Origin: a virus
Lineage: Duplodnaviria; Caudoviricetes
Reading direction: 5' to 3' (one strand)
Length of the DNA stretch: 57,730 nt
IMG/VR virus record: IMGVR_UViG_3300037755_000790
Coordinates: 1-57,730 of that record
Shown: positions 7,537 to 52,000 of the stretch, one piece after another
Position numbering within the stretch: the stretch's first letter is position 1
How the letters are laid out: every line of letters starts with the position of its first letter
Made by a program: the position numbers and the translations under genes
Notes under the pieces: generated by a model
Told to the model about the DNA's origin: nothing
Database searches by the model: none
The model's input: only the letters and a program-made list of their open reading frames with translations

Positions 7537-7546
7537 GGGATTGCGC

Positions 7547-33795: not shown

Positions 33796-33893
33796 GACTG
33801 GTCCTCGTCTTCGCTCGAGTTTTCAGGGTCCGGTGGTGGGTCGCCGGGAATCACTTCGGCCTCGGCGGTGATGACGATTTCCCAGCGCGTCAC
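33792..33893 (-). CDS. 33-aa acidic peptide
   Basis: GTGA overlaps at both ends; AEAEVI motif. Confidence 0.5.
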   Translation of the reverse strand: MTRWEIVITAEAEVIPGDPPPDPENSSEDEDQS

Positions 33894-34501
33894 GGCGTAC
33901 CCCACTTCTCCCGGAACCGGGTCACGTTGTCGGCCCACCCAGCCAGTTGGGTGACGTCGGCTGAGCCACGGGTGTTGTGCCGCACCAGTTCGTGGCCGCG
34001 GTCCAGGCACCAGTTCGGCAGGCCCTTGTCCGTCATCTGGCGGCAGATGTCGTGGTCGTAGAGGTGGAAGCCCCGGTACGTCTCGTCCCACACCAGCGTC
34101 TGCGCGGTGGCGAGAAGTAGCCCGTCGAGGTGGGCGCATTCACCGCCGGGGCCGAAGTCGAGCAGCCCCATGCGGGCGTCGACGACAGAGCCGCAGGTGT
34201 CGCCCTCCCACCACGGGAGGATCGGGGTGCGGGAGCCAACGACCCCGACGATCCCGACGGCCGAGGTGCAGTGCTCGATCAGCTCGGCCCGCAGCCGGAC
34301 CGGGTCGACGATCGCGACGTCGGAGTGGACGTAGCAGCGGATCGGGTTCCTGGCCCTGGCTTGGCCCTCGTTGTAGGCCTCGGCTATCGAGGCGGGATGC
34401 TCGACGAGGACGATCTCGTCGTCGTCGACACCACGAACTGTCGCGGCGAGGTTGGCCATCAGCACGTCGGGCTGGTTCGACGCGACGATGTAGGAGATCA
34501 C
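33890..34501 (-). CDS. glycosyltransferase-like protein (GT-A)
   Basis: SIAEAYN.G, YVHSDV, G.VG..G, LDGLLL, FH.YD.D.C. Confidence 0.8.
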   Translation of the reverse strand: MISYIVASNQPDVLMANLAATVRGVDDDEIVLVEHPASIAEAYNEGQARARNPIRCYVHSDVAIVDPVRLRAELIEHCTSAVGIVGVVGSRTPILPWWEGDTCGSVVDARMGLLDFGPGGECAHLDGLLLATAQTLVWDETYRGFHLYDHDICRQMTDKGLPNWCLDRGHELVRHNTRGSADVTQLAGWADNVTRFREKWGTP

Positions 34502-34634
34502 TCCGGGCGGTCCGTGACAGTTGCGCGGGCCGCCTTGTTGTCACGGTCTAGGCCGCGCCAACCAGACGGACGCGCGCCTACGCTATCGACATGATTACCG
34601 CCCACAGCACGGGCCGATCCGCACGGATCGCACC

Positions 34635-34838
34635 GTGACGCCTGACGAGATTCGCGCATGGCCGGCAACGGTGGACCTCGTGACCGGACTCGCTCCATGG
34701 GGTGTGGGCCGTGACGCGGCGTACCGCCTCGCCGCCGCCGATGAGGCGCCGGTCCCAATCCTTCGCATCGGCCGTCGACTCCGAATATCCCGCGCCGCGG
34801 TCATGGCCGCACTCGGCATCGCCGACGAGCCGACGTAG
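34635..34838 (+). CDS. excisionase-like HTH protein, antisense within the late operon
   Basis: PATVDL.....GVGR..AY.L......PVP.LRIGRR.R. Confidence 0.7.
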   Translation: MTPDEIRAWPATVDLVTGLAPWGVGRDAAYRLAAADEAPVPILRIGRRLRISRAAVMAALGIADEPT

Positions 34839-34842
34839 GAGA

Positions 34843-35412
34843 TCACCGGTTGAAGTTCCGCCGATGCCGCCAGCGGTAGAACAGCAGCGTGTCCGACAGG
34901 TTGGCGAAGGACGCGCCCGCGCCACGCATGCGGCCGAACATGACGGAGTCTTCCTCCGTGTTCGTGTTGCCGCTGGCCTCGTAGCACCCCACCGCTCGGG
35001 CCTTGGCGACGTTGTACAGGGAACTGCCGTGAGGCACGTCCACCACCCAACGCACGGGTACGCCACTCTGCACCAACCAAGCCGCGTACGACACGATGTC
35101 CGCGTCAACAGCGGACGTCACCTCGAGCGCGGTGTGGTCCAGCCAGTTGTCCGCACCGAGGAACATGCACCGGTCGGTTTCGACCCGGGCGAGCATGTCG
35201 TTGAAGTTCGCGACGATGCCCATCCGTGCGGGTCGCAGGACGAACTCGACCTCCGGGTAGATGTCAGGCAGGTGGCCGCAGTCGCCCACGCCGTCGTCGA
35301 CGAACAGGACCCGGTCGAAGCCGCGGGTCTGGTGCAGCACGCTTTCGATGGCCTGCGCCGCCAGATGGCCGTACCTGTAGCTCGCGATCACGCACGTGAC
35401 ACCCATCAGCAC
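34843..35412 (-). CDS. glycosyltransferase family 2
   Basis: VI.SY.YG..A.QAIESV..QT, FVDDG, FLGADN, ED. Confidence 0.85.
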   Translation of the reverse strand: MLMGVTCVIASYRYGHLAAQAIESVLHQTRGFDRVLFVDDGVGDCGHLPDIYPEVEFVLRPARMGIVANFNDMLARVETDRCMFLGADNWLDHTALEVTSAVDADIVSYAAWLVQSGVPVRWVVDVPHGSSLYNVAKARAVGCYEASGNTNTEEDSVMFGRMRGAGASFANLSDTLLFYRWRHRRNFNR

Positions 35413-36047
35413 CCCGCCACCGTCCCGGCCCGGAATCCGTTCATGTAGTACTGCCTCGGACAGTTGGACTGGTTACGTTCGCTGCCGTGGACGACCGTGT
35501 TCGACCACGTCAACACGTCGCCCGCCGAACCGAACAACTTGACGCCCCGCCGGCCGCCCCGGATGAAGGCCCTCAGGTCACCCGAGTTCACGAACGCCTG
35601 CTCGTGGGAGCCGGGGATGAACTCGACGGCGCTGTTCGCCGCCGTCCAGTCGTCCACGAGGACGGCGGTCTGTAGGTACAGGTTCCCGACGCCCGGCCGG
35701 AACCGTTCGTCGCTGTGCCAGGCGAACTCGTCAGGGTCGCCCGGCAGGTGGAAGTAGTACTGCTGGGTCTCCAGCTCGTAGCGTTCGTGGCCGTAGTAGG
35801 CGGACACGATGTCCAGCAACCGCCGATCCGCCGACAGGGCCCGCATGTACGGACTGCTCGGCCGGAACAGGATCGTGGGGTAGCCGCCCAGTATCTCCAC
35901 GTTGGAGTCGCCGCGGCAGGACAGGACCGCCTCGGCCCGGAGGCGGTTGACCTCGTCGGTACGGAAGACCCCGGGGATCCTCGCGAAGCCGTCACGCCGG
36001 CAGGCGGCGACGTGCTCAGATGTAGGCGCGGTAGATGGCGAACGCAT
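35406..36047 (-). CDS. PhyH-family 2OG-Fe(II) dioxygenase
   Basis: RDGF, WHSD, IPGSH, AGDV, HGS..N....R. Confidence 0.85.
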   Translation of the reverse strand: MRSPSTAPTSEHVAACRRDGFARIPGVFRTDEVNRLRAEAVLSCRGDSNVEILGGYPTILFRPSSPYMRALSADRRLLDIVSAYYGHERYELETQQYYFHLPGDPDEFAWHSDERFRPGVGNLYLQTAVLVDDWTAANSAVEFIPGSHEQAFVNSGDLRAFIRGGRRGVKLFGSAGDVLTWSNTVVHGSERNQSNCPRQYYMNGFRAGTVAGC

Positions 36048-36492
36048 CGCCGTTGCCCTGCGTCGTCGAGTAGGCCTTGCCGTAGCCGGCGGCCTTCACC
36101 AGGCCGATCACGCGCTCGGTGAAGTCGCCGTACGGATACGCGAACGCGTCCCGAGGCATCCAGTCGGGACACTCCAACTCCCGCAGGACCTCACTATCGC
36201 TGAGCCTCGTCATGTCCGGATGCGACCACGTATGCCAACCCAACCGGCAGCCGTACTCGTCCACCAGAGTCCGCAGCTGCGACAGGTCGACGAAGCCTTC
36301 CTTGCCGATGGTGTCGCCGGCGGGGAACAGCCACACCCCGCCGATCTCGCCGATCTCGGCCCGGTGATCCCAGACGCTGGTGTAGATGCCGTCGAACGTC
36401 ACCTCGCCGACGAACGAGCGGATCTGCTCCATCGAGTTGGTGAACGTCGCCGGGTCCGGGGTTCCGATCCGGTGGAACACGCCTACCGCCAC
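36016..36492 (-). CDS. polysaccharide deacetylase (CE4/NodB-like)
   Basis: VTFDG, HTWSHPDM, FAYPYG. Confidence 0.85.
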   Translation of the reverse strand: MAVGVFHRIGTPDPATFTNSMEQIRSFVGEVTFDGIYTSVWDHRAEIGEIGGVWLFPAGDTIGKEGFVDLSQLRTLVDEYGCRLGWHTWSHPDMTRLSDSEVLRELECPDWMPRDAFAYPYGDFTERVIGLVKAAGYGKAYSTTQGNGDAFAIYRAYI

Positions 36493-36962
36493 CGGAACCT
36501 CCGCAGCACCTGGACGTACTCCCGGTACGGGAACTCCTCGACCAGCTCGGCCTCGCCGGGCAGTGGCCGCTCCAGGTCCTTGATGTGGCAGGTGAGCACC
36601 ACCGCGCCCTTGGCCGCGTGCTTACGCACCAGGTCGACGAGCGCCCCATGGTCGTACTGGTCGTACAGGACGCCCGTCAAGAGCACCAGGTCGTACCTCT
36701 GCGTCGGTGCGTCCACCGCGACCACGGGCTTGGGGATCCTGGCCCGAGCCGCCTCGCTCAGCTCGAATCCGTGGATGACGCCGGCGGGCAGGTCCTTGGT
36801 GATCCACCCCTCGCCGCAGCCGATGTCCAGCGCCCGCTTGAACCTGCCGGGGATGGCGGCGAGAATGCGGCGCTTACGATCCTGGTCATCCGGGTGGGTT
36901 TCGAAACCCCACGGATCCGGGACGTTGTACCACCGCTCAAGATCGTCCCTGCTCTGCGTCAC
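36483..36962 (-). CDS. SAM-dependent methyltransferase (NodS-like)
   Basis: Y...DPW.F, ALDIGCGEG, YDLV...GVLY. Confidence 0.8.
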   Translation of the reverse strand: MTQSRDDLERWYNVPDPWGFETHPDDQDRKRRILAAIPGRFKRALDIGCGEGWITKDLPAGVIHGFELSEAARARIPKPVVAVDAPTQRYDLVLLTGVLYDQYDHGALVDLVRKHAAKGAVVLTCHIKDLERPLPGEAELVEEFPYREYVQVLRRFRWR

Positions 36963-37285
36963 TCCGCCACCTCGGGATGCGTCGTCGGCTCCAGCCGACG
37001 GCTGCCTTTGCCGCCACCCGGGCGACCATCGGCGATCTGCTGGACCCGGTTACGGTGCAAGCCGAGACTCGCGCCGATCTGGCCGTACGTCATCCCGGCC
37101 GCCCGCATCTCCAGGACGGCGCCTTGCCGGATCCGTCGCAGCTCGGCGGCGAGCGGCGGCAACGCGTTAAGCCGCAGCCCGACATCGAGGGCCCGCTCGA
37201 CCGGATCGGGGATCTCAGCGACGCCGCCGAGAAGCTCTCGGCTGATCGCGGCCACGATGTCGTCACGCAAGTCCGGGTCGGTCAT
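36959..37285 (-). CDS. small HTH protein
   Basis: GMTYGQIGASLGLHRNRVQQI. Confidence 0.7.
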   Translation of the reverse strand: MTDPDLRDDIVAAISRELLGGVAEIPDPVERALDVGLRLNALPPLAAELRRIRQGAVLEMRAAGMTYGQIGASLGLHRNRVQQIADGRPGGGKGSRRLEPTTHPEVAE

Positions 37286-37560
37286 CGCACACGCTCACAG
37301 ACGACGACGCGGGCACCCTCAACGGGCAGCTTGGACGTCAGGCCCAGCGCTGGCGCCACGAAACGCGTCGGCCGGTACCTGTACGCGGGATCCCCGCCGA
37401 GCCACAACAGCCCGTCATCACCGACCAGCAGCCCGAAACCAAGCGCCTCGGCGAGCAGCTCGACGCTGATCCCGATGACCTCATCGGCGCGCACTACCTT
37501 GAGCGTGCCGTCTTCGCGGCGAACGACCTCCGCGGCGCCGTAGCTGTCCTGGCCGATCAC
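37282..37560 (-). CDS. hypothetical protein
   Basis: coupled overlaps. Confidence 0.55.
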   Translation of the reverse strand: MIGQDSYGAAEVVRREDGTLKVVRADEVIGISVELLAEALGFGLLVGDDGLLWLGGDPAYRYRPTRFVAPALGLTSKLPVEGARVVVCERVR

Positions 37561-37778
37561 GTGGACACCTTGGGTGGTCCGAGAAGGAAGTCAGCCCGGT
37601 CGGCGTCGAGCCTGTCCGTCAATAGTTCCCGAGCACGCTCCACGTCGCACTCAACGCTACCGAGCGTGCAGAACGGCCCGGTCACCATCGACAGCCCGAC
37701 GGCGGAGTCGCCGAGTGGCACCGACCGGTACTCCACCACCAGTTCGCCGGCTGGGGTCCTGAACCGCATGGTGCTCAC
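37557..37778 (-). CDS. hypothetical protein
   Basis: GTGA-coupled. Confidence 0.45.
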   Translation of the reverse strand: MSTMRFRTPAGELVVEYRSVPLGDSAVGLSMVTGPFCTLGSVECDVERARELLTDRLDADRADFLLGPPKVST

Positions 37779-37972
37779 GAGGCCACCGCCGCTTCGTCGC
37801 CCTCGCGGGCCGTGACGACGCGCCCGTAGGCTCCGCACGTACAGGTCAGGTGATGGGTGGTCACAAGCGCACAGTCGGGCTCATGTCTCGGTATCTGCCG
37901 GATGGACTCTTCGGACAGTCCGTAGTAGTCGGCCGCCGCACGAATCTGGTCTTCGGTGAGATCGGTTGTCAT
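37775..37972 (-). CDS. small His/Cys protein
   Basis: H..DC.......CTC; coupled. Confidence 0.55.
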   Translation of the reverse strand: MTTDLTEDQIRAAADYYGLSEESIRQIPRHEPDCALVTTHHLTCTCGAYGRVVTAREGDEAAVAS

Positions 37973-38691
37973 CGGGCGTTCGCCACCATCCGGGACTGGA
38001 ACAGGTCTCGGTCCGCGTCACCGGACGCCCAGCCGAGTCGGTACGTGTCGTCTAGTTCGGCCTTGTGGACGATCGGGTTCAGATGCTCCACGACCGAGTC
38101 CAACGCCATGGCGAAAACGCCCAACTGCTTGGCTTTCGTGACCACCTCGTCGTCACTGAACATGTGGCCGTAGCACTCCGGCCACGCCCAGCCCGGACCG
38201 TCCCACGACGCGCCCACGTCGGCGATGTACTGCCGGTCGATGAGCATGTGCGTCGCGTGCTCCCCCCGCATCACCCTCGGGTTGGCGAGATCGTTGGTCC
38301 CGATCACCGACGGACGGCGGCCGGCCTTCTCCGCCGCCACACCCACGACCCGGATCAACTCATCAGCCCAGCCGGCGTGGAAACGCACGTCGTCGCCGGT
38401 GACGAACAGCCACGACTCGCCCGTGCTGCGGTAGGCGTGATTCACTTTCGGGCCGAACGGGTGATCCCACGTCGTCAAGACGTTGGCGCCCGCCGCGGTC
38501 CACGCCGAGACGCATTCCGCCTCGTCCGCGTGACACACCGCGTACGCCCGGCACCGATCCGTCGACTCCCGCAGCGAATCCATGAACGGGCCGGCGTGAC
38601 CCGGCCGGCCGCGCGTCGGCACCACCACCGCGATGTCGATCGGCTGCGGAGACAGACGCAGCCCAGGACCCTTGAAACCCTTCCACGCCAT
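37969..38691 (-). CDS. glycosyltransferase family 2
   Basis: VVVPTRGRP, FVTGDD..F..GW, Y.H.F.D.E, VEH. Confidence 0.85.
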   Translation of the reverse strand: MAWKGFKGPGLRLSPQPIDIAVVVPTRGRPGHAGPFMDSLRESTDRCRAYAVCHADEAECVSAWTAAGANVLTTWDHPFGPKVNHAYRSTGESWLFVTGDDVRFHAGWADELIRVVGVAAEKAGRRPSVIGTNDLANPRVMRGEHATHMLIDRQYIADVGASWDGPGWAWPECYGHMFSDDEVVTKAKQLGVFAMALDSVVEHLNPIVHKAELDDTYRLGWASGDADRDLFQSRMVANAR

Positions 38692-38957
38692 CAGGCACCG
38701 TCCGGGCGGCCAGCGAAGGCGGCAACGTAGTCCGGCGTGAAGTCGCCGCCGCGCACGATCTCGTCCGGGTCGAGGCCGCGACGTACGAGCATCTCATCGG
38801 CTTGGACGAAGACGACGCTGACGCCGGGCAGCTTCTCCGCGAACGTCGCCCTCGCCGCGTCCGCCTCGTCCGCACTGAACGGGCGGGCCACGCGGACCAC
38901 GAGTGTGTCGCCCTGCCGCAGGACGGTCGCCTCGGCGAACTCCGGTAGGTCAGCCAC
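38691..38957 (-). CDS. hypothetical protein
   Basis: L..GD.LVVR motif; coupled. Confidence 0.55.
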   Translation of the reverse strand: MADLPEFAEATVLRQGDTLVVRVARPFSADEADAARATFAEKLPGVSVVFVQADEMLVRRGLDPDEIVRGGDFTPDYVAAFAGRPDGA

Positions 38958-39195
38958 GGCGACCACGGGTCCCACGTCGGTCCTTCACCACGAGCGCCTC
39001 GTCCGCCGGCGGTTCCTCCGGTGACGCGACAGGCTCCGGCTCAACGACCGGCGGCGTTGGATCCCCACCGGCCGGGTAGAACATGCCCGGCGCCGCCAGC
39101 ACCACCGGGTCGTCGTCGGCGTAGTCGTGGTTCCTCTGCACCAACACCGGCACACCGTCGACGGCCACGAAGCCCCGGTCCCGTGAGCGCATCAT
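38950..39195 (-). CDS. small head-associated protein
   Basis: DPVV...P..F followed by a Pro/Glu linker and basic tail, typical of genes after the MCP. Confidence 0.55.
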   Translation of the reverse strand: MMRSRDRGFVAVDGVPVLVQRNHDYADDDPVVLAAPGMFYPAGGDPTPPVVEPEPVASPEEPPADEALVVKDRRGTRGRRG

Positions 39196-39512
39196 CGGAC
39201 CGCCCCGTTCTCGACACCGGCGAGGATCGCGGTGATCGACGAGATGCACCCGTGCGTCCACTCCACCGACTCCGGCGGCGGTGGAGCCTGGTACAGCATC
39301 GCGTCCACGTTCTTCGACGTTTCCTCGAAGCCCAACTCAAGGTGGTGGTAGCACAGGGAGTTGACGAGCGTCCCGCCAAGGCTGTGACGGCTCTGCGTGG
39401 CCATGCCCTCGCCGGTGTTGACGTAGATCAGCATCAGCAGAAGCCGGCGGGTCTCGTCGAGGTCCCGACGTACAGCCTCGGACAGCGTCGGCTTGCGGCG
39501 GAAGAGGCTCAT
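39192..39512 (-). CDS. hypothetical protein
   Basis: ATGA-coupled. Confidence 0.55.
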   Translation of the reverse strand: MSLFRRKPTLSEAVRRDLDETRRLLLMLIYVNTGEGMATQSRHSLGGTLVNSLCYHHLELGFEETSKNVDAMLYQAPPPPESVEWTHGCISSITAILAGVENGAVR

Positions 39513-40348
39513 GACGCCACCCGCTCGTCCTCGTCGGCGCTGCGCCGCTCGGCTTCACGTTGCGCTTCGATGATCGCCTGCTGCGCCATGTACCGGTCAT
39601 ACGTCAACGAGAACGTCTTGATGTGACCGAGCTTCACGGCCGTGTTCACCCATATGGGGATACCGGCGAAGCCAGCCCGGAAGCAGAACGTGATGTCCTC
39701 GGACATGCGCCGGCCGTAGAAGTCCGTCTCCTGGAACCAGGGGTACGCGTCAGAGAACCCCACCATCCCCGGCCGCTTCGGGGTTCGGAAGTCCCGCACC
39801 CTCGCCAGCACCGACCGGTGGATCAGCAGGCAAGCCGCGCCGGTGGCGTGCACCTCGAACATGGAGTCCAGCGGAAAACGCTTGTAGCGGATGAACTCCG
39901 GCCGCTCCAGCGTACCGACCACGTCATAGAGCGTTGGCTCCAGTTCCGCCGTCTCCGACAGGGTGAAACAAAGGCCGCCGATGATCGGGGCCTTGTCCTC
40001 GTCGGCGAACTCGAGGAGCTTCTCCACGGTGTCCGGCTCGAACGTCATGTCCGAGTCCAGGAACAGCAGCCACGGCGCCGAGGAGTACTTCAGGAACTTC
40101 TCGCACACCTCGTTACGGGCCGCGCTGACGTTCGCTGAGGACACCTGCGACACGAACCCGCCTCGGCCACCGGTCACGTGCTTAGGGCCACGCGTCGACT
40201 CGTAGTCCACGAGGCCCAGGACGGACTCCATGAACTCACCGTTCACGTGACTCGGGCGCACCCAGGCCACGACGACTCCCTCAGCCTCCGCCTCGGCCGG
40301 CTCGTCGCACGCGGACGCGTCGGTGGGACTTACTTCCACTTCGGACAT
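39509..40348 (-). CDS. glycosyltransferase (GT-A, DxD)
   Basis: ARN....FL, LFLDSDM, G..CLLIHR.V, SEDI.FC, GHIK. Confidence 0.85.
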   Translation of the reverse strand: MSEVEVSPTDASACDEPAEAEAEGVVVAWVRPSHVNGEFMESVLGLVDYESTRGPKHVTGGRGGFVSQVSSANVSAARNEVCEKFLKYSSAPWLLFLDSDMTFEPDTVEKLLEFADEDKAPIIGGLCFTLSETAELEPTLYDVVGTLERPEFIRYKRFPLDSMFEVHATGAACLLIHRSVLARVRDFRTPKRPGMVGFSDAYPWFQETDFYGRRMSEDITFCFRAGFAGIPIWVNTAVKLGHIKTFSLTYDRYMAQQAIIEAQREAERRSADEDERVAS

Positions 40349-40457
40349 TAGGGACCTCCAGGTAGGCGGGGTTCCCGGACTCCTGGCGTCCGGGAACCCC
40401 TTCCCACAGGGGCGACCTGTGGGGCACGTCTCGCTCGCTCGGATGAGAAAAGCGAAG

Positions 40458-40463
40458 TACTAT
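40458..40463 (+). promoter_or_regulatory. -10 box for the pentamer-array cassette
   Basis: TACTAT in an AT-rich patch 11 nt before the first GGC unit; -35 weak (TCGCTC). Confidence 0.5.
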
Positions 40464-40474
40464 GAAGCGACGGG

Positions 40475-40587
40475 GGCGTGGCATGGCAAGGATGGCTGGG
40501 CCGGGCGCGGCATGGCAGGGCGTGGCAGGCGCGGCTGGGCGTGGGTTGGCGGGGCAGGGATAGGCGAGGCGTGGCCTGGCGCGGCCC
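40475..40587 (+). repeat. GGY-NN pentamer array A (putative guide RNA)
   Basis: 23 units, mostly GGC+NN: GT AT AA (A)T TG CG GC AT AG GT [A] GC TG GT TT GG AG TA GA GT CT GC CC. Confidence 0.9.
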
Positions 40588-40632
40588 ACAAAAGAAACAC
40601 TTCGAACCGAACGGACCCAGGGAGGGCTAGCA

Positions 40633-41181
40633 GTGAGCACAGATCAGCAGGTCTCCGACGACGAGACAGCCGTCGAGACCGAACAGGTCGCCGAGACGCA
40701 GCACCAGCAGAAGGAGCGACTCTCGGCCGAGGAACACGACGCGCTCGAACGAGTCGCGAAGGACGACGTTGACGGGCTCATCCAGCCCGAGATGGTGGTG
40801 GAGATGGCATCGGACCCGGCGTCGCCGCTGCACAAACACTTCGAGTGGGACGACGGCAAGGCCGCACACGCCCACCGGATCGCTCAGGCCCGGTACCTCA
40901 TCGCCCGTTACACGATCACCCGCATCGACGAGGGGCCGAAGTACGTCAACATCACGATCCGCAAGGACGACGGATCGTCGCGCCGCGGCTACGTCGCCGT
41001 GGAACGGGCCGTCGCGGACCCCGACCTCTGCGGCCAGATCATGGCCGACGCGAAGCGAGGGATCGTCGCCTACCGCAACCGGCTCTCGGCCTTCGAACGG
41101 TCACGAGCGGTCGTCGGAGCGCTGGATGAGGCCATCGGTCGCATCGACGAGGTCGTCCAGGACCTGAGCGAGGCGGCTTAG
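40633..41181 (+). CDS. partner protein of the RAMP-like cassette
   Basis: GGGAGG RBS; P..VV..A.DP.SPLH..FEWDD..AA..HR..QAR.LI motif. Confidence 0.8.
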   Translation: MSTDQQVSDDETAVETEQVAETQHQQKERLSAEEHDALERVAKDDVDGLIQPEMVVEMASDPASPLHKHFEWDDGKAAHAHRIAQARYLIARYTITRIDEGPKYVNITIRKDDGSSRRGYVAVERAVADPDLCGQIMADAKRGIVAYRNRLSAFERSRAVVGALDEAIGRIDEVVQDLSEAA

Positions 41182-41183
41182 CC

Positions 41184-41786
41184 ATGCCCGAGATCAGGCT
41201 GGAAGTCGTTCAGCGGGAGGTAATCGACGTCGAGATCATCGGCGTGAGTCCGCTGATCCCGCACAAGTGGTCGGAGAAGTCGCTCCGCATGATGCGCGAG
41301 TCGCAATCCGGCAGCAAGGCCCGCAAGAAGCACGACCCGAAGGTGCCGGTCGACGAGGCCGAAGGGGCGCTGTACCGGCTCGCCGATGGTCGCCCGGCGA
41401 TGCCGGCGACGGCCTTCAAGGCGGCCATGGTCGGCGCGGCCCGACTGTTCCAAGGCGTCACGATGACCGCGCTCAAGGCGGCGGTGTTCGTGCACGGCGA
41501 AGGATCGGACCAACTCGTCCCGATCGAGGGCGAGATGACGCTGCGGGAGGACACGCCGCGCAACGCGACCGGGGTGGCGGACCTGCGGTACCGGTACGCG
41601 TTCTGGCCGTGGCAGACCACGCTCCAGATCGAGTACCTGACCGCGATGGTCGACAAGGACTCGGTCGTCGCGCTCGTCGACGCGGCCGGCAACGGCGGAG
41701 TCGGTGACTGGCGGCCGTCGGCCCCCAAGTCGCTCACGGGGACGTTTGGAAGGTTCCGGGTGGCATCACTCGGCGCTGTGGGATGA
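41184..41786 (+). CDS. RAMP/Cas7-like protein
   Basis: first strand I.G.SPL, P..AFK.A...AA helix, R.R..F..W, and C-terminal Gly-rich loop AG.GGVGDWRP.....G.FGRF.V. Confidence 0.7.
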   Translation: MPEIRLEVVQREVIDVEIIGVSPLIPHKWSEKSLRMMRESQSGSKARKKHDPKVPVDEAEGALYRLADGRPAMPATAFKAAMVGAARLFQGVTMTALKAAVFVHGEGSDQLVPIEGEMTLREDTPRNATGVADLRYRYAFWPWQTTLQIEYLTAMVDKDSVVALVDAAGNGGVGDWRPSAPKSLTGTFGRFRVASLGAVG

Positions 41787-41793
41787 TCGCCCG

Positions 41794-41975
41794 GACGAGG
41801 CGTGGCCTGGCTGGGTAGGGCGAGGCTTGGCAAGGCCGTCAAGGCCAGGAATGGCGCGGCGGGCTTGGCGTGGTAAGGCATGGCACGGCGAGGCGGGGCT
41901 CGGTAGGGCGTGGCAGGCTAGGCGAGGCTGGACTCGGCACGGCATGGCGGGTCAGGGCGTGGAATGGCACGGTGC
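41794..41975 (+). repeat. GGY-NN pentamer array B (putative guide RNA)
   Basis: 37 units: GA GT CT TG AG GA TT AA [C] AA CA AT GC [G] TT GT AA AT AC GA GG TC AG GT [A] TA GA TG TC AC AT GG AG GT AT AC GC. Confidence 0.9.
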
Positions 41976-42009
41976 AGGCCCCGGAGTTTCGGCTCCGGGG
42001 CCTGCTTCG
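41974..42009. terminator. hairpin between array B and the convergent MCP stop
   Basis: GCAGGCCCCGGAG-TTTCGG-CTCCGGGGCCTGC, perfect 13-bp stem. Confidence 0.8.
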
Positions 42010-42012
42010 TCG

Positions 42013-43720
42013 TTATGCCAAGGCCGTGAAGGCCGGAGTGGTGTGCAAGGTCAACATTCTGAAAGCCGCTGGGTCGACCGTGTCTGCCCCCACGCGCCAG
42101 AAGCCATACCACCCGGCCTGGCCGGTCGGCCGCTGGTTCGAGCCCTTGACCATCGGCTCGTACATCATCGAGAACCCGATACGATCGACGATGACGTATC
42201 TCTCGAAGTTGCCAGCAAGCAAAATGTTGGCCGACGTGGTGACCACCGAACCCATGGTGCTGCACTCGTACTGCGGCTGGCCGAGAAGCAGCGACGGGAC
42301 GCCCATGCCCATCGACGCCCAGAACGCGCTGCCGCCACTGGTATCGAACTGGCGGACCAGATTGTAAATCGTTTTGTTCGCAATCCACGACGCCTTGCTC
42401 GCGTCACGAGGACGGAGAGCGTTGGCGACCCGGTACACGTCGCCGGACACGAACGCCGTGATAGTGGCGGACGACACCAGGGACGCGGTGACGGCCGCGA
42501 CAGCGGCGACGATGCCGCGGGGGATGGTCGCGCCGGTGTTCCCGGTCGCGAAGGCGGCCGCTTCCAGGTTGGCCTTAGCGTCGGCCATGAGCATCGACAG
42601 CTCCGACGCGAAGCCCGAATCGGCGAGAACCTCGTAGGAGCCGACAACCCAAGCGTCGGCCTTCTTGGGTGTGATCGTGGGCTGCGTGAAGGTCGGGGAC
42701 GCGTCGGCGGCCTCGGTTCCTTCACCGGTCCATTCCGCCGTGACGCCGGCGCTCGTGACGCCGTTCCAGTCATCGGTGACGATCTGCTTGACCGTCGAGA
42801 TGGACCGGATCGGGTCCTGTGTACCGGCGTTCGTGAGGATGATCGTCGGGTCGAGCGTAAACGGGACGAGATACATTGTTGTTACTCGATACCTTGCGGT
42901 ACCGGGCCCGGTCATTTCTGCCGGGCTCTGCATCTTTTCCATCGATGCAGATCGGACTATATCTTCAGCTCCAGTCCCGACCAGCTATACCGGCTGGGCG
43001 GACCTCTCGGAGTTGCCACGCGTGTAGTCTCTACGGACTCCCCGGTACGGGTTGCCTCGGTATTCCCCTGCTTTGGTGGGGTTCACCGATACAGCGCGGT
43101 TTATTACCTCCGGGTCACCCGCAGAGGACGGCCACTCGACCGCCGTTGGCGCCGGTGAGGGACAGGGCGGCACGCATGAGCTGCCCCGGGTACGTCCCCA
43201 TCGACTGCCAGTACTCCTCGAACTCGCGGTGGTACTCGTCCGAGCCCGTCATCAGCAGGTGGCGGGCGATGCCCGACGTCTGCGGTGACGGCTTGTCGAG
43301 CAGCCGCATGACGTGCTCACGACCCGCGTCGTCCATGTGGCCGGGTGCGATCTCGACGGCCTTCTTCGCCCGCGAGATCATGTCGGCTTTCGGTGCGAGT
43401 TCGGCCCGGACGACCTCGTAGTTGTCGTACGGGTCGACGGTCCGCATGATCTCCGGTCCCTTGCGGGCCAGAGCGGTAGCTCCGTCGCCGGACTCGCGGT
43501 GTGGGCTGGCGAGGACGGCGCTGCGGACAGCCTCCGCCTTCGTCTCCCACGCCTCGGCCTTGGTCCGCTCGGCCTCGAGCTGAGCGAACTCGTCGGGGAT
43601 CTCCTCGGAGCGGGCGATGTCGTCGTCTTCCCAGTCCTGCTTGTCGGTCAGCTCCGCCAGTTCGGCGCGGAGCACCTCCATGTCGGCGGCGTACTCCGCT
43701 GACGTCTTTCGCTTAGCCAC
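42013..43720 (-). CDS. HK97-fold major capsid protein (exons 43139-43720 and 42013-42873; 480 aa spliced)
   Basis: splicing restores NGG|YLVP; W.GE, LLG.P, GNF..Y.IVDRIG, R.G....DP.AF; N-terminal delta domain. Confidence 0.92.
42874..43138 (-). mobile_element. group I intron (265 nt, no ORF)
   Basis: P1 GGCGGU/GCCGUC with U.G at the 5' splice site; core elements GUAUCGGUGAA, AAUACCGAG, GUAGAGACUA, AAGAUAUAGUCC; terminal G. Confidence 0.92.
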
Positions 43721-44474: not shown

Positions 44475-47400
44475 TCATGATGCGAAGACGTCGATGACGC
44501 AGCGGGTGGCCACTTCGGCGGACAGCAGCTCCCCGAGGTCGGGTGCTAGGCGGTCCTGGAGTACGGCCCACGGGGTGGGGGAGGTGGCCCACAGGTTCAG
44601 GCCGTCGCCCTCCGTCCAGAAGGTGAGGTCGGACCGGTAGGTCATCCGCCGCCGATGGGTGCGCCGAGCCGGGGTCGTGGGCGTCTTGGCGCGGGTCATG
44701 GCGGCCATGGACATCAGCGAGTCGGGTGGGTCCTCGTCCATCTCGCGATAGAGGGACACGATCTTGCGTGCCGCTGACCGCTTCTGATCAGCCGACGCGT
44801 CGACGGCGGACAGTCGGCCGGCGGCGGCGTGGACGCCGTTGCGGTTCAGCGTCCCGTCGGGCTCACGGACGGGTAGCTTGCACAGTTCCTTGCTGTACTC
44901 GTCCTGGCCTTCCGCCGGCTCATCGTGGATCAGGCACGCGGCTCGCCACTGCTCGTCGTCGTAGTCGGCCTGCGTGAACTGCGACCACGGGGTGTCCGAG
45001 AACGACCGGGACCGGTACTCCTCGTCGGGTTCCTCGCCCATCTCGGCCGCGTCCTCGACGTCCGTTTCGTCTTCTTCGCCGAGGGGGATGTCGGTCACCT
45101 CGTCGCCGAACGCGACCCGGATGTGGGTCAACGTCACCGGGCCGGCGAGGTCGACGAGGTCCTCGAGCTCGGCCGGGTCGTCGGTGTACAGCAGCGTGAT
45201 GTGCGGATGCCAGGGCGTGTGCTGGTCGGGGAGGTCGAAGTCCAGGTCGTCGATCTCGTCCTCGACGAGGGCATGGGCGGATGCCAGATCCTCACCGGAG
45301 ATGAGGAGGACGTCGCACGGCTCGTCGCCGTTGGGGTTGAACATGGCCAGCGAGAAACCGTCGACCTCGAGCACGTCTTCGAGGTCGTCGGCGACCGTCC
45401 GCGCGGCGTCGATGATGGCGGCACGCTGGTCCTCGTCGTAGTCGTCCGCCTTGCCGAGGAACAGGAGCGTGACGTGGAGCTGGTCGGCGTCCTCCCCACC
45501 TTCGACGGCGAGGCGTTCGAGGTCCGCCGGGGACGGGACGAGGGCGATCATCGCGCCGGTGTTCTCATCCGGGTACTCGGCGCGGGTGATGTCGACGTCG
45601 TCCGGATCGGTGATGGAGCGCTTCGCGTCGCGCTTGAGGAACTCATCGAGCGGAAGGGTGGAGACCAGATACCGGGATGCCGCCTGATGGCCGAGCCCGG
45701 CCGCGATGGCCTCACGGTACTTGTTCGGCCGGCCGTCGTTCGGGTCGGGCAGTTCGACAACCGCTCGGTGCAGAATCTCCTCTAGCCGTTTGGACGTCGG
45801 CGAGGCGACCCCGCGATTCCGGCTGGTCTCCTCATCGATGGCGCGCCCTAGTGCGGCGATGCCGGCCTCCGACCCGACGCCCTGCTGTAGCGCGTGGCGC
45901 AGGTCGAGTTGTGTCGGTTTGGTCAGGCCGTCTCCGCCGGAGAACGCCTTCACGCTGACGCCGAGCTCGCCGGACGTCGCCACCGTAGACGGAGCGGGCG
46001 AGTCGTTGTCGAGGATGGACTGGATGTCCGCCTCAAGTTGGCGGGTGACCGCCCAGTGCGCTGGTTCCTCCCACTCCTCCGGCGACGGCGCGTCGCCGGT
46101 TGTCTCCCGTGCTACCTGGAGTACCCGGTCCCGGTCGGTGCCGCCACCCGTCCGGGCCTGGTAGGCGTCCATCGACTGGAGGATGTGACGGATCCGCGCC
46201 TCGCGTGACCGTGCCGACGACGGGATCGGGGGGAGGTTCAGCGCGACGTTGATGCGCTTCAACTCGGCCGCGGACTTGGTGTGCAGGACCGTTTCGGCTT
46301 CGTCCATCGGGCCGCCGAGAACAGACTCGCGGGCCTTCGGGGCCGCCTTCGCCGGGGATGCCTTGGTGGGCGGGCCGCCCACGGCGTCGAGGCGGTCCGC
46401 GAGTTCGACGTACCTGTCGGCGCGGCCGAGAGCGCCCTGCCGGGTGCCCTGCCGGGGGCTGATCGACGCGACGGGCAGCCTGGCCGCGCCTTCGCGCATC
46501 CCGGCGGCTTCCTCGCGCAACGCGGCGGCAATGGACTTGGGGCTGTCGCCGTCGTCGAGTCGGGCCTGCACCTCGTCGAGTACGCCACGGTCGATGTCCA
46601 TGTCCTTGGCGATCTCGCGGGCGTTCAGACGCGGAGTGGAGTCCGATGGCGTCGTGGTGGTCTTCGGGGCGACCGCCTTGGTGGCAGCCTTCGCGACCTT
46701 CTTTGGCGCGGCCGGCTTGGCCGCGTCGGAAGCGAGGGCCCGCATGGCGACCTTGATCTGGTCGGTGTCTTTGTCCTGCTCGTCCTTCGGCAGCTCGGCG
46801 AAGGGGACGTCCAGATCCCCGCCGGCAGCCCAGTCGTTGCGTGACAGCCACGCCTTGTGGATCTCTTCGCCAACCTCCAGGCGTGTCTTCTCGTCGCTCA
46901 GGTCTACGGTGCCGCCGCGCTGCTTGAGGATGCGCTGGACGACTTCGCCGGCGGCCTTGTTCTCGGCCTGCCAGTCGCCGGGCAGATCGTCGTAGCTGGT
47001 GTTGGCGATGTCCACTTCATCGGAGTCGTGCGCGTCGATCCACTTCTGGTCCTTGGTCTTCTTGACGCGTGGCTCGAATGTCCCGTCCGCCTGCTTGCGG
47101 GTCTTGCGCCAGTCCTCATGCAACGCGTTGGCGATCTTGGCGGACTCGACCTGATCCGCACTCCCAGTCGACTTCTTGGCGGGCGTCGCCTTCTCCGCGG
47201 CGGGCCGCACCGTGTCGTGCGTCGCCGGAACGTTGCCGATGAACGTCTGATCCGGACGGTGTAAAGAGGGGCCGTCGATGTCCCATCCGCCGGGCAGACC
47301 ACGATCGCGGGCGAAGTGCTCCGCGATGTGGAGCTGCAGCGCGCTCTTGGCTTGCAAAATGCCCGGCGGGACGTCGATGCCCAGTCCGTCGGCGACCTTG

Positions 47401-47903
47401 CGGAGCTTCGCTGACGTGAGGCGCGTGTCGCCGCTCAGTAGCGCGATGACCTCGGCCTCGGACTGGGCCGCGGACACCTTGGCCACCGCGTCGGCCACCT
47501 CTACGGCGGCGGCCTGCTGGGCCTTCGTCTTCGCCGCCGGCTTGGCTTCTACCGCGGCCTTCTCCACCGACTTCTTCGCGGGCGCCTTCTTCGCCCCGGC
47601 GGCCTTCATCGCGGCCGGATGTGTGGCGCCCTTCACGCGCTCGGCCTGATACCGCTTCCGGTCATCTGGCGACAGGGCGTCGTACTGCTCCCGCTGCGGC
47701 ACGGTGAGCTTTCGCATGCCCGACGGGATGGTCACGCCGATCGCCAGCCCGTAGTGTGCCGCGCCCTCGGCGCTGATCACCTGCCGGCCGGGGGCCGGGT
47801 TGCTCCTCCCGCCACGGGCGCGCGCGATCTCGCCATCCATCCGCATCCGCACCAGCGCCATCCGCGCCACCGCGCGTGCCCGAGGAACCGTGGACGTGGT
47901 CAT
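44475..47903 (-). CDS. polyvalent head-associated protein with 2H phosphoesterase and RyR-repeat-like domains
   Basis: LHVTL and PHITL (2H); H..W...Y..LP / H..W...VPF.EL...EQ.KD repeats; CKLPV.EP.G.LNRNGVHAAA domain. Confidence 0.8.
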   Translation of the reverse strand: MTTSTVPRARAVARMALVRMRMDGEIARARGGRSNPAPGRQVISAEGAAHYGLAIGVTIPSGMRKLTVPQREQYDALSPDDRKRYQAERVKGATHPAAMKAAGAKKAPAKKSVEKAAVEAKPAAKTKAQQAAAVEVADAVAKVSAAQSEAEVIALLSGDTRLTSAKLRKVADGLGIDVPPGILQAKSALQLHIAEHFARDRGLPGGWDIDGPSLHRPDQTFIGNVPATHDTVRPAAEKATPAKKSTGSADQVESAKIANALHEDWRKTRKQADGTFEPRVKKTKDQKWIDAHDSDEVDIANTSYDDLPGDWQAENKAAGEVVQRILKQRGGTVDLSDEKTRLEVGEEIHKAWLSRNDWAAGGDLDVPFAELPKDEQDKDTDQIKVAMRALASDAAKPAAPKKVAKAATKAVAPKTTTTPSDSTPRLNAREIAKDMDIDRGVLDEVQARLDDGDSPKSIAAALREEAAGMREGAARLPVASISPRQGTRQGALGRADRYVELADRLDAVGGPPTKASPAKAAPKARESVLGGPMDEAETVLHTKSAAELKRINVALNLPPIPSSARSREARIRHILQSMDAYQARTGGGTDRDRVLQVARETTGDAPSPEEWEEPAHWAVTRQLEADIQSILDNDSPAPSTVATSGELGVSVKAFSGGDGLTKPTQLDLRHALQQGVGSEAGIAALGRAIDEETSRNRGVASPTSKRLEEILHRAVVELPDPNDGRPNKYREAIAAGLGHQAASRYLVSTLPLDEFLKRDAKRSITDPDDVDITRAEYPDENTGAMIALVPSPADLERLAVEGGEDADQLHVTLLFLGKADDYDEDQRAAIIDAARTVADDLEDVLEVDGFSLAMFNPNGDEPCDVLLISGEDLASAHALVEDEIDDLDFDLPDQHTPWHPHITLLYTDDPAELEDLVDLAGPVTLTHIRVAFGDEVTDIPLGEEDETDVEDAAEMGEEPDEEYRSRSFSDTPWSQFTQADYDDEQWRAACLIHDEPAEGQDEYSKELCKLPVREPDGTLNRNGVHAAAGRLSAVDASADQKRSAARKIVSLYREMDEDPPDSLMSMAAMTRAKTPTTPARRTHRRRMTYRSDLTFWTEGDGLNLWATSPTPWAVLQDRLAPDLGELLSAEVATRCVIDVFAS

Positions 47904-47956
47904 GCCACCCCCGAACATGGTTGAGCCCCGTTGGAGGCTGAGGAACGGAGGAAGGG

Positions 47957-48241
47957 TCAGTTGTCGAGTAGCTGGGTGACGCGGTCGATCTGCGCCCGGA
48001 CCCACGCGTCCGGGGCGTTGAGCCACGGACCCTCGACGAGTTCCAGCAGGATCGGGCCGCTCGCGTCCGGGTCGAGGCCCGCGCCGTGGTGGGCGAGTGC
48101 GTTGATCAGCGTCCCGATCAACTCGTACCGCTTGGTGCGGCCGGCGTACAGCGCGCCGTACAGCAGCCGGCGGGTCTCGTCGAGGTCCTTCGACTTCGAC
48201 GCGTCACGCGTCGTCAGCGTGTAGTCATCCCACGCGGCCAT
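47957..48241 (-). CDS. hypothetical protein
   Basis: GGGAG RBS. Confidence 0.6.
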   Translation of the reverse strand: MAAWDDYTLTTRDASKSKDLDETRRLLYGALYAGRTKRYELIGTLINALAHHGAGLDPDASGPILLELVEGPWLNAPDAWVRAQIDRVTQLLDN

Positions 48242-48541: not shown

Positions 48542-49057
48542 CTAGCCGGGGCCGATGAGTTTGCCGCGGGGTTTGCCGCCCTGGGCCACCCGATGGGCGT
48601 CGGATCCGGCCCACAAGCCAGTCACGCTGTGCAGCCACTGGGATGCCATGCGTTTAGCCCTGGCCGAGCCGACATGCCGACGCAGCAATCTATAGAGGGT
48701 TGTCCATTGGTGGCGGGACTTGATCCACCGTTTTAGTCCGGCCCCGTGGGTCCAGTACTCGCGGAGCTTGTACCGGTTCCCACCCATGGCCCGCAGGATC
48801 TCGTCGTCCTCGTCGAGACCTTCAGCCCGCGACAGTTCGTCGAGTAGCGCCTCATCCAACTCCGCCGCGAAGCCGTCGGCCGTCCAGCCGGAGGCGAGCG
48901 CGTCGAAGGTCCGGTCGTCGTCCCAGCCGTTCGCCGACTGCGCTGACCGGAACAGGTCCCAGCCGGGAGCGTCGAAGAACTCAACACCATCGTCGGTGGC
49001 CGCGATCGTGCCAACCGTGGCGCCGGTCGATGTCTCAACGATGGCGAGCCGGATCAT
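48542..49057 (-). CDS. head-associated protein (acidic N-half, basic LREYWT.G.G...W domain)
   Basis: ATGA-coupled to the portal gene. Confidence 0.7.
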   Translation of the reverse strand: MIRLAIVETSTGATVGTIAATDDGVEFFDAPGWDLFRSAQSANGWDDDRTFDALASGWTADGFAAELDEALLDELSRAEGLDEDDEILRAMGGNRYKLREYWTHGAGLKRWIKSRHQWTTLYRLLRRHVGSARAKRMASQWLHSVTGLWAGSDAHRVAQGGKPRGKLIGPG

Positions 49058-52000
49058 GGTCTACCCACCGTCCACTGGATGATCAAGTCGACCAGTTGGG
49101 CCTTCGTCGACTTCGACCCGTAGGCGATCTCCGCCGAGTCGGCTATGGCCTTGAGTTGGTCACGGGTCCCGGTGAGCATGGCGCGGGCGTCGTTGCGGCT
49201 CGTCGCAGTGCGGAGTTTCGCCACCGTGTCCGCTGGTGACTCGGTGGCCTTCGCGGCCTTGGTGGTAGCCACTGTGAACTGATCGCGGGACAGGTACTCG
49301 GTCGTACGACGCCCGTCCTGCGCGACCGCGTCCACCTCGTAGATGGCCTCGGCGCCTTCGCCGGTCACCGACCTGACCGTGCCCGAAGTGGCGTAGCTCC
49401 CGGCGTTCGGCTTGAGCGCCACACGGCTACCGACCAATGCGCTGGCTCCGGTGGCCTTTGCTGCTCGGGGTGCTCTCTTCGTAGTGGGGGGCGCGGGGGA
49501 CGCCTTGGTGGGTGCGGCCATGGACCGGAACTCGGCGACGAGTCGAGCCGCCGCGTCGGCGCCTACCTGTTCGCTGACACGGACGACCTCTTCGCTCTGG
49601 TCGCCGGGGAGGTCGGCCCACTCCTGCCGGTCGATGAGCCTCTTCGGCCCCGGTTCGCCGCCACTCACGGCTCGCCACACCGCCAACGCCACGTCCCGCT
49701 GACGGTCGAAGGCGATCACCGACTCCGGGCCGGCGGAGGTAGGGCCCTCGACGCGTTTAAGTGCCGCCTCGACATTGCGGCGGGTGAAGGCGCTCAGGTC
49801 CGGATTGGCCAGTTCGGCGCGCGCCACCTCGGCTTGCAGTGCGTTGTTCCTCGCCGCCGCCCGCGCTCTGGCGGCCGTCTCGATGGCCCATACCGCGGAC
49901 CGTGCGGCGTACTGCTGGGACTCGGGTAGCCGCTTGATCGCCGCGTCACCCGGAATACCGTTGGCCTTCTTCAGCTCCGCGCGCTCAGCCCGGATGGCCT
50001 CGTCCTGGCTCACGAGTCCGCCCGCCGCTTCGATGGCCGCGCGCATACGCGCCAACGACGCCGCGTGGCCGGCCCGGTCGAGTTCGGTTCCGTGGCTGTA
50101 CTCAGACTGCGACGGGAGCGCTTCCGCCGTGCGTCGTGCCGTGGCGGCGCGTTCGGCCAACGCGTTGAACGCCTCGGCCTCGTCGCGGTCGTCGGCGTTG
50201 GAGTCCGCCCACTGTCGCAGGTCCCGTTCAAGCCTCGTGAGGCCGGCCACGGTCGAGTCCTTGTTGTGAATCCACCCGGTAGCGGACGCGCGGTCAAGGT
50301 CTCGTTCGTGGCTGGTGAGGGCGCCGCCGAGTTGGGTCCGGGCCTGGGTGTTCATCTCGCGCAGCGGGTTGGCCGGCGTAGTGGGCGCCGCCTTCGCTGC
50401 TTTCGGGGCTCGTCCTGCGGCTACCTTCTTCACCGCGGGAGATGGAGAGGATGGCTCGAAGGTGAGTTCGCTGACGTCGGTCGGGTCGAGCTGTTGGCGT
50501 CGGCCGCCTTCCCAGTCGACGAAGATCTTCGTGCCGGTCCGTGTCACCTTGCCCCGGACGGGTTCCTCGCCGCGGGGCGCCCACACCGCCGTGTCCCCCG
50601 TCTTAACGTCCGGCAGCAGCCCCTTCGCCGAAGGGATCACCCTACGCGGTGGTGGGGGTAGCTTCGGTGCCGCCACGTAGCCCGACAGACGATCAGCGGA
50701 CACCATGCCGCCAGTGCCGTCCGCGAACTCGACCCACTGAGCACTGCCGCCGCCCGCCGTTCCGGACGGGTCACGGTCGTCGGGGCCAAGGTAGGTGACC
50801 TCACCCTTGGTGTCGTGGATCAGCTTGTCGCCCGGCTTCCAGCCCGACAGGATCTGAACATCCTTCGCGACGTGGCCGGTCAGCGCCTGCTTGGCTTCTC
50901 CTCCGTCTGGGGTACCGGGGACAGCGGGGAGTGGTGTCGGGGTACCGGGGAGTGGGCGAGGAGATGGGTCGTCGATCCAGAGCCAGTTCTTGTCCTGGCC
51001 ACCGATCCGAGCCGACGCGGCGCTCTGCTGTTCGTCGGGCATGCCGACCACCCGGTCCGGGGTCAGGTTCACGCCCGGCTGGACCATCATGCGCTTCAGC
51101 GCGGCATCTACCTCAGCCCTCGGCAGGTCCCTCAGTCCAGGCTCCGCACGGAGATCGGAAAGCAACACCGCGCCGGTGTCCCGAAGGTCGACGTTGGACA
51201 GCGGAGTGTGGGGTCGCGCCTTCAGCGCGGCGGCCGCCTCTCGGATACGGTTCTCTACCTGCACCTGACGTACGGCTGGATCACTCGACAGGGGCTCGTG
51301 GGCACCCTTCGGTGCTGGGTCGGCGTTCTCGATCGCGTCAGCCAAGCGCCGCAGCGTCTTGACGTCGTCGTCGCGGATCGCGTCAAGGTGCCGCTGTCCC
51401 GGCTCAACGTTGACCTGAGCCTCACCGGGCAGGATCGGGCGGCCTTCCAGCGCGTCCGCGGCTTGGCGCAGTCGCGCGGCGACGTCGCGCGGGTCCTTGC
51501 CGGTGCTGTATCCCCTACGCGCATCCCCGACCGCTTCTTGGCCGGGTCTGGTGAAGCCGTCGCTTTCCTGGCCGAGGAGCGCCCTGAACGCCTTCCGGCG
51601 CTGCGCCTGAACTGTCGGGTCAGCGGATACCTCTCCCGGCGTCGCGGTCTGCACGACGGCCTTCGCTACTGAGACCCGTTCCCCGTCGAGGTCTACGTCA
51701 TACCCTGGCCGCACCACCGTGACCTGCGTGCCGGACGGGATGTCCTTGCCGATGGGCTTGTGCCTGCCACGGTCGAACGGCTCCACGGCGCCCGCTGGGC
51801 CGGTGACGCGGTGCAGGCCATGCGCAGCTGCGATCCGGTCGATGGCCGCGTCTACCCGGGTACGGTCACCGGACGTGCCCGCCTGGACCAGGTCGTCGAT
51901 CAGCGCCGGGTCGAGGTTGTTGAGCTTCCCGCGGGTGCGGATACGGGACTCCATGGCCCTCGCGGAGGCGCCGTTGGAGGACAGTTCGTCGAGTTCGGAC

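Follow-up and report, generated by a model that had tools for sequence, protein, structure and literature searches.

A VIPR cassette in an actinobacterial phage with guides that match the capsid gene of the phage's own family

VIPR systems and the present locus compared

Systems named VIPR, short for Viral Interference Programmable Repeat, have been described for phage SUSP1 and, as type II, for Pseudomonas fulva (10.64898/2026.04.26.720920; accessible part of 10.64898/2026.04.26.720927). They are phage loci with vipr and vap genes, and their guides are built of GGY/NN pentamers that read targets on both strands with a 1-nt skip aligned to the wobble position, leading to silencing; types I-VII are distinguished and each guide has 9-16 pentamers (10.64898/2026.04.26.720920). 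Where arrays are staggered, the guides overlap by one base, according to the legend of fig. S18 in the same paper. Targets given in the accessible portions of the two papers are satellites, prophage lysis-lysogeny regulators, vipr genes, vrRNAs and REP decoys. No self matches of 80% or more were reported in the clades checked (10.64898/2026.04.26.720920), and the accessible text of a further report has guides against the vipr genes and vrRNAs of kin that match self less well (10.64898/2026.10.15.759431).

How does the present locus compare? The window referred to below is the whole stretch analysed, 57,730 nt of a viral record that is about 76% complete, with a GC content of 67.5%. As in VIPR, vipr and vap form a phage locus without Cas1, the Vipr protein has a RAMP fold, shares its PHROG family with SUSP1 Vipr and keeps the GGY-binding residues, and the GGY/NN arrays hold 10-12 units per guide, with a wobble-aligned 1-nt skip and targets on both strands. 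That the cassette belongs to VIPR is close to certain. The original prediction, made before any database search, had proposed a RAMP fold, a GGY/NN code with a 1-nt skip, dsDNA as the target and probable silencing, all of which agree with VIPR as published (10.64898/2026.04.26.720920). It had also named VIPR as a similar architecture, and the PHROG family shared with SUSP1 Vipr confirms the resemblance to a published system whose staggered array with 4-nt slips is in print too. The VIPR system and the staggered array are already known; the capsid target is the notable feature.

The locus differs from SUSP1 VIPR in its vap, which is of another family (phrog_15946 here, phrog_5926 there), and from the tailed vrRNAs of SUSP1 and P. 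fulva VIPR in that its guides are staggered and have no repeated structured tail. The guides abut with a one-base overlap, here at GGCA|G slips, as in the staggered vrRNA arrays of the accessible literature, but here a GGAT unit (40490) sits within a guide. Like the vrRNAs in the accessible part of 10.64898/2026.10.15.759431, they match self less well than kin and address conserved codons in wobble alignment; however, the targets described there are vipr and vrRNAs, mostly for orphan guides of SUSP1-family coliphages, whereas the cassette here is complete and directed against an essential structural gene. The capsid gene of the carrier's own family, with a residual self match of 75-86%, departs from the targets in the accessible VIPR texts. 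In the accessible VIPR literature, whose target tables, figures and supplements may list capsid targets, nothing was found on guides that converge on the capsid gene of their carrier's family, and 'capsid' has 0 occurrences in the supplement PDF of 10.64898/2026.04.26.720920, whose data S3 and S4 may list them.

The best structural matches of the modelled Vipr are Cas7-group RAMPs of class 1 CRISPR systems (Csm3, Cmr4), with which it shares an RRM core, thumb and G-loop. In contrast to class 1 CRISPR-Cas, identity is 8-16% and pairing is gapped, not contiguous. Membership of class 1 was rejected, as there is no CRISPR array, no set of several cas genes and no Cas1. The predicted lack of cas1 and of a CRISPR array agrees with 0 Cas1 matches in the record (the control matched in 7/14 genomes) and with a tandem-repeat scan of the window that found no long-period array.

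Proteins and setting of the cassette

The cassette lies on the plus strand in the order array A, 182-aa ORF, 200-aa ORF, array B and 13-bp hairpin (Table 1). The self-contained unit predicted to be inserted against the late operon is thus present with both ORFs, the arrays and the hairpin.

Table 1. Features of the cassette and of the neighbouring capsid gene
Feature	Position	Strand	Remarks
Candidate -10 hexamer TACTAT	40458..40463	+	upstream of array A; predicted from sequence
Array A	40475-40587	+	23 units, two of them 4-nt
Guide A12	40475..40527	+	10 NN units, one scaffold unit without Y, plus GGCA slip; target: antisense of capsid motif xLIARHMLMT
Guide A3	40528..40587	+	11 targeting units plus terminal GGCCC; target: sense capsid motif AWVFGSYEVLA
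vap (accessory gene)	40633..41181	+	182 aa; phrog_15946
vipr	41184..41786	+	200-aa RAMP/Cas7-like protein; phrog_4652
Array B start: guide B1 and remnant B2	41789..41861	+	9-10 units (B1), 4 units (B2); no target found
Array B	41799-41975	+	36 units; 37-38 with degenerate GCCCG/GACGA units at 41789-41798
Guide B3	41862..41915	+	10 units plus GGCA slip; target: antisense of capsid motif TLDPSVILTN
Guide B4	41916..41975	+	11 targeting units, the last within the hairpin; target: sense capsid motif YECSTMGSVIT
13-bp hairpin	41974..42005		between cassette and convergent capsid gene
Major capsid protein gene	42013..43720	-	Phage_capsid, phrog_10; split by group I intron
Imperfect self site of guide B4	42239..42270	-	capsid gene
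Imperfect self site of guide A3	42623..42654	-	capsid gene
Imperfect self site of guide B3	42830..42858	+	capsid gene
Imperfect self site of guide A12	43248..43276	+	capsid gene, 5' exon

The 200-aa protein is a Vipr. It was assigned to its PHROG family at E 6e-44, and the family's profile recovers SUSP1 vipr, which has GGY/NN arrays on its flanks, at 2e-98. A profile built from 82 relatives was matched to SUSP1 Vipr by hhalign at 97% (E 1e-10), and the sole hit under 0.9 in a PDB profile search was 36pp_D ('SUSP1 Vipr protein', E 1.2e-6); Pfam and NCBIfam gave no match for the vipr product. Identity to SUSP1 Vipr is about 25%. In the accessible part of 10.64898/2026.04.26.720927, GGY binding by SUSP1 Vipr is assigned to H17, R138, D177, W178 and R179, and the skipped base to K33. 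The first five align with H27, R137, D175, W176 and R177 here, while K33 falls opposite Q41, in a part where the alignment is weak, so that 5/6 of the listed residues are kept overall. For the fold, the alignment-based model was used (pLDDT 87; the single-sequence model reached 32). It shows a small RAMP with an RRM core, a thumb and a G-loop, and matches Csm3/Cmr4-type Cas7-group RAMPs (Foldseek E 4e-6; Z 10.3, rmsd 3.8, 151 aligned). Both the RAMP/Cas7-like assignment and the RAMP fold expected as its check have therefore been borne out, the former by the PHROG and PDB profile matches to SUSP1 Vipr and the latter by the model.

The vap product was placed in its family by the PHROG search (E 1e-27). 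A phrog_15946 gene follows vipr in mycobacteriophage Saal, and the family was found in 4/9 related records. The product showed no detectable homology to SUSP1 Vap1 in a single-sequence comparison, which remote homology could escape, and there was no significant match, and hence no fold or family, in PDB or Pfam.

Do other phages carry the same arrangement? The original proposal that neighbourhoods of vipr homologues be checked for pentamer arrays was answered by an examination of 20 homologue loci, some 15 of which are independent: each of them has GGY/NN arrays beside vipr, and most of the loci listed share the 4-nt GGCA slips. VIPR cassettes with staggered arrays are also present, without annotation, in cultured actinophages (27 records from Mycobacterium and 5 from Gordonia, counting duplicates). 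Vipr identity is 68% in the Mycobacterium phages, for example Saal and its relatives (L001, L005, L007-L010), and 42% in the Gordonia phages, such as ODay and Pipp (L002, L003). Deposited gene calls overlap the arrays at the start of Saal gp51 and at Pipp gp43.

At its 3' end, the cassette closes with the predicted 13-bp hairpin, which folds with stem 41974-41986/41993-42005 and a UUCG loop (z -6.9; 0/200 shuffles) and whose 3' edge is 8 bases away from the stop codon of the capsid gene, which is convergent with the cassette. It is probably a terminator or a 3' tail; a scan for U-tract terminators found none, and nothing in the window reached the Rfam gathering level. At the 5' end, the -10 box of the original prediction exists as a TACTAT hexamer, which stays a candidate as a consensus promoter scan returned 0 promoters, this hexamer included. 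The motif AGTACCA, which resembles the candidate -10 region, is found 3' of the capsid gene in 4/7 of the relatives listed.

The slot between capsid and glycosyltransferase genes is variable, with a gap of 23-1885 nt, and the glycosyltransferase gene (39509-40348, Glycos_transf_2 match) lies downstream in 58/63 relatives. Neither vipr nor vap was found in any of the capsid loci searched, which for vipr include five close capsid relatives. Given this variable slot and the capsid loci without the two genes, the cassette is a moron. It is oriented against the late operon, and thus expression in a lysogen would be possible; a tyrosine integrase gene is present at 7343-8401.

Several side observations concern the same region. 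The slot 40349-42012, like its counterpart in L223, L072, L077 and L184, is a moron hot spot, with Cys-rich, HNH-like genes, judged by eye, in several relatives. Two strong adjacent hairpins at 40368-40427 (z -3.9) lie upstream of the glycosyltransferase gene, and similar hairpins also precede that gene in relatives without the cassette.

Guides and their matches in the capsid gene

The arrays stand out clearly in the window: every position with at least 6 in-phase GGY per 8 pentamers lies inside array A or B, and a score of at least 5 is reached at one position outside them (minus strand, score 5). The 23 units predicted for array A were recovered, while the 37 units predicted for array B are 36 regular ones, and 37-38 are reached only if the degenerate upstream units are counted. 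The predicted 4-nt units are there as well, with the context AG-GGCGT-GGCA-GGC at 40517-40530 and 41905-41918. The arrays divide into four guides of 10-12 units, one of 9-10 and a 4-unit remnant, with GGCA|G boundaries at 40524 and 41912 and variant forms of this boundary at 41834 and 41858; no repeated structured tail lies between guides in either array. The decoded target switches at the slips GGCA|G 40524, GGCA|G 41912 and GGCG|G 41858. By contrast, the 4-nt unit GGAT (40490) behaves as a scaffold deletion within a guide and not as a boundary, because the target match continues through it. The parse of A12 requires GGAT to be read as GG+AT and was chosen post hoc, after the hits had been seen; it is backed by the match in relatives, which runs through this unit at 18/20 in 6/69.

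Which targets do the guides specify? With a skip of 1, guides A3, B3, B4 and A12 each have their single best match of the window in the capsid gene, and the four matches fall, two per strand, within one 1.7-kb gene of the 57.7 kb. The self match is 19/22 bases for A3, 17/20 for B3, 17/22 for B4 and 15/20 for A12, and the scores are reached by 0, 2, 9 and 85 of 1000 order-shuffles, respectively, the last not being significant alone. Skips of 0, 2 and 3 perform at chance level (46-200 of 200 shuffles reach the scores), which supports the predicted 1-nt-gapped NN-x code. All four guides are in codon phase on both strands, and the base skipped is the third (wobble) base. Under the NN-x code, the arrays encode four conserved capsid peptide motifs of this phage family. 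The prediction of four capsid matches, two per strand, therefore stands, with the qualification that all are imperfect and that A12 is both post hoc and non-significant. A3 and B4 have the sense of the capsid mRNA and cannot pair with it, and so DNA is suggested as the target; dsDNA rather than mRNA had been predicted, and the analogy with published VIPR points the same way.

The first part of array B is different. B1 and B2 had no target in the window, where 812 and 220 of 1000 shuffles reach their scores. None appeared in 2.0 Mb of loci of capsid relatives either, the best match being 14/18 with a null of 14-15, nor in five related records at up to 3 mismatches. The 42 IMG/VR matches from a 15-base B1/B2 scan were mostly to low-GC contigs and were judged to be chance; the best of them (L245), 19/20 in a phage gene of 53% GC, is at about chance level by a rough estimate.

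The capsid gene itself is interrupted at 42874-43138 (minus strand) by a group I intron, which lies between two guide sites. It matches RF00028 with 40 bits (E 9.5e-9), below the gathering score of 50, and its ends were placed from the sequence; it contains no long ORF, and in the relatives compared the capsid gene reads through in one frame.

Kin or self as the target

The original prediction had read the neighbouring capsid gene as the target, yet better matches, up to 22/22, are found in the capsid genes of relatives. For this comparison, capsid loci were collected by patterns outside the target sites, and 72 of 180 were kept after dropping those with less than 60% identity, fewer than 200 aligned residues or more than 95% redundancy; loci selected on guide-derived patterns were left out of the counts, as the guide patterns had been used for their selection. 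Relatives that beat self number 41/69 for A12, 14/72 for B3, 47/72 for A3 and 7/69 for B4. The best kin matches are 22/22 in 5/72 for A3, 19/20 in 4/72 for B3, 18/20 in 6/69 for A12 and 20/22 in 6/70 for B4. Summed over all four guides, the six highest totals are 33-35 of 44 units, compared with 30 for self, and belong to relatives with 75-81% identity; no sampled relative fits all four guides, the best having 35/44 units. Among genomes, the closest matches are in actinobacterial MAGs, the best being a Micromonosporaceae bin at 79%.

Since the capsid genes of relatives match better than self, kin are the likelier target. The self matches are most simply explained as a by-product of kinship, a 'shadow' cast by targeting the capsid genes of relatives, and the matches suggest that all readable guides are aimed at this phage's relatives, more precisely at their capsid gene, as a weapon against close kin. 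Silencing of kin capsid genes by a VIPR cassette in a temperate actinobacterial phage is probably the right account of the locus, and the following course can be proposed. The VIPR cassette (vap, vipr and two staggered vrRNA arrays) would have been inserted as an oppositely oriented moron into the capsid-glycosyltransferase slot, where its own promoter would drive it, also in a lysogen. Cleavage of the array RNAs at the GGCA|G slips would yield guides about 55-60 nt long. By analogy with the VIPR papers, Vipr would polymerise on the vrRNA with one protomer per pentamer, bind dsDNA without a PAM and block transcription, and the guides may in this way silence the late head operon in relatives that co-infect or superinfect. 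Each guide has 3-4 mismatched units, of which one or more is a Ser/Leu codon-family difference, and these mismatches would spare the phage's own capsid gene. On the other hand, the self match of B3 and A3 is 85-86% of bases, above the published cut-off of 80% if counted by bases, and so self may not be spared.

What distinguishes the guides from self? They differ at 12/42 targeting units, and 5 of these 12 are silent differences between Ser or Leu codon families, with at least one in each guide. At four mismatched units, the guide has the family consensus and self a rare state (1/69, 5/69, 0/72 and 3/69). Conversely, some guide states are nearly absent among relatives (terminal AC of A12, 0/69; TC of B3, 1/72), and rare or absent states imply that either the true target was not sampled or the guides have drifted. 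The guides carry the minor codon family at 4 of 9 Ser/Leu/Arg units where 0.74 are expected (P=0.003, in a test devised post hoc that treats sites as independent). This excess fits selection for guides that miss self, or equally an unsampled target with unusual codon usage. It is also conceivable, though we hold it only tentatively, that the cassette provides a family-wide RNA-encoded immunity, in which four capsid motifs would be read despite wobble changes, self and kin would be told apart mainly by the Ser (TCN/AGY) and Leu (CTN/TTR) codon families, and guides would be kept only where the carrier differs; among silent changes, the skip code would then see only those in two-family codons.

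Could the cassette instead be a captured weapon? It would have come from another element attacking this phage family, been taken up at the moron slot behind the capsid gene and by now be tolerated or in decay, after drift of the capsid gene or of the guides had put an end to self-harm. The slot after the capsid gene is a hot spot for insertions, vipr is lacking in the five close capsid relatives searched, the GGAT unit and the 4-unit B2 are damage to the arrays, and a guide match is broken by each of four self-private changes. There was nevertheless no support for escape of the capsid gene of this phage at the target sites: private changes are 5/38 inside and 28/256 outside the sites (Fisher P=0.78), and in a conservation-matched comparison they are not enriched (5 versus 3.4 expected, P=0.26). 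The 5 private changes inside the sites are a number reached by 0/52 relatives above 70% identity. Moreover, vipr and vap are intact and the catalogued RNA-binding residues are kept. This origin seems rather unlikely, and it is partly compatible with kin silencing, as it concerns where the cassette came from more than its present function.

Another possibility is self-regulation, with VIPR binding its carrier's capsid gene by way of tolerated mismatches and dampening the late operon, for example to stabilise lysogeny or to time capsid output. All four matches are in the adjacent own gene, B3 and A3 match it at 17/20 and 19/22 bases, the self match of B4 (8/12 units) is better than that of 61/69 relatives, and an integrase is present. 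However, a guide copied from self should match self, yet 12/42 units differ; four units have the family consensus in the guide and a rare state in self, A3 is perfect in five relatives, and the clades checked in 10.64898/2026.04.26.720920 had no self matches of 80% or more. Self-regulation, and any such purpose, is therefore unlikely. That the arrays are GC-rich satellites or coding leftovers, matching the capsid gene by chance or through local copying of the neighbour, is very improbable, because the shuffle results are specific to skip 1, the wobble phase holds on both strands, relatives match better than the neighbouring gene and arrays lie beside 20/20 homologue loci, even with a 67.5% GC background and an A12 match that is non-significant alone.

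Is such targeting general among related VIPR records? In nine of them, 0/62 guides beat all 30 shuffles against their own record, compared with 3/3 here; the 62 guides were parsed automatically from records of which several are incomplete, and the scan covered G001, G006 and G008 apart from their end pieces. The convergence of guides on the own capsid gene is particular to this phage. Neither array variants nor a perfect target were found in the contigs of the sequencing runs examined, and metagenome contigs gave 0 matches to the exact B4 pattern. Short contigs from a second, freshwater run are 95-99% alike to 40618-40942 (vap) and 42455-42817 (capsid), none of them spanning the arrays, and so a close strain with the cassette may exist.

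These observations extend VIPR to a temperate actinophage, and for a clade with only about 25% identity to SUSP1 Vipr they confirm the 1-nt skip code by sequence alone. With four guides on a single essential gene and a self match of 75-86%, the phage offers a natural test of self and kin that brackets the mismatch tolerance of VIPR, and if kin exclusion is true, VIPR would be a superinfection barrier independent of repressors. As cultured mycobacteriophages have a 68%-identical Vipr with staggered arrays, array processing is open to study in M. smegmatis.

Other genes on the minus strand deserve mention. Following the capsid gene, 33890-40348 holds what appear to be glycosyltransferase, methyltransferase and dioxygenase genes. 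In the head module, a 1183-aa ORF (44475-48026) has a 2H-phosphoesterase-like stretch (TIGR02258, E 1.6e-5, below the cut-off). The 2203-aa ORF at 49054-55665 starts with a weak portal match (TIGR01537, E 0.002) and presumably contains an intein-like insert and long extensions, as judged by eye.
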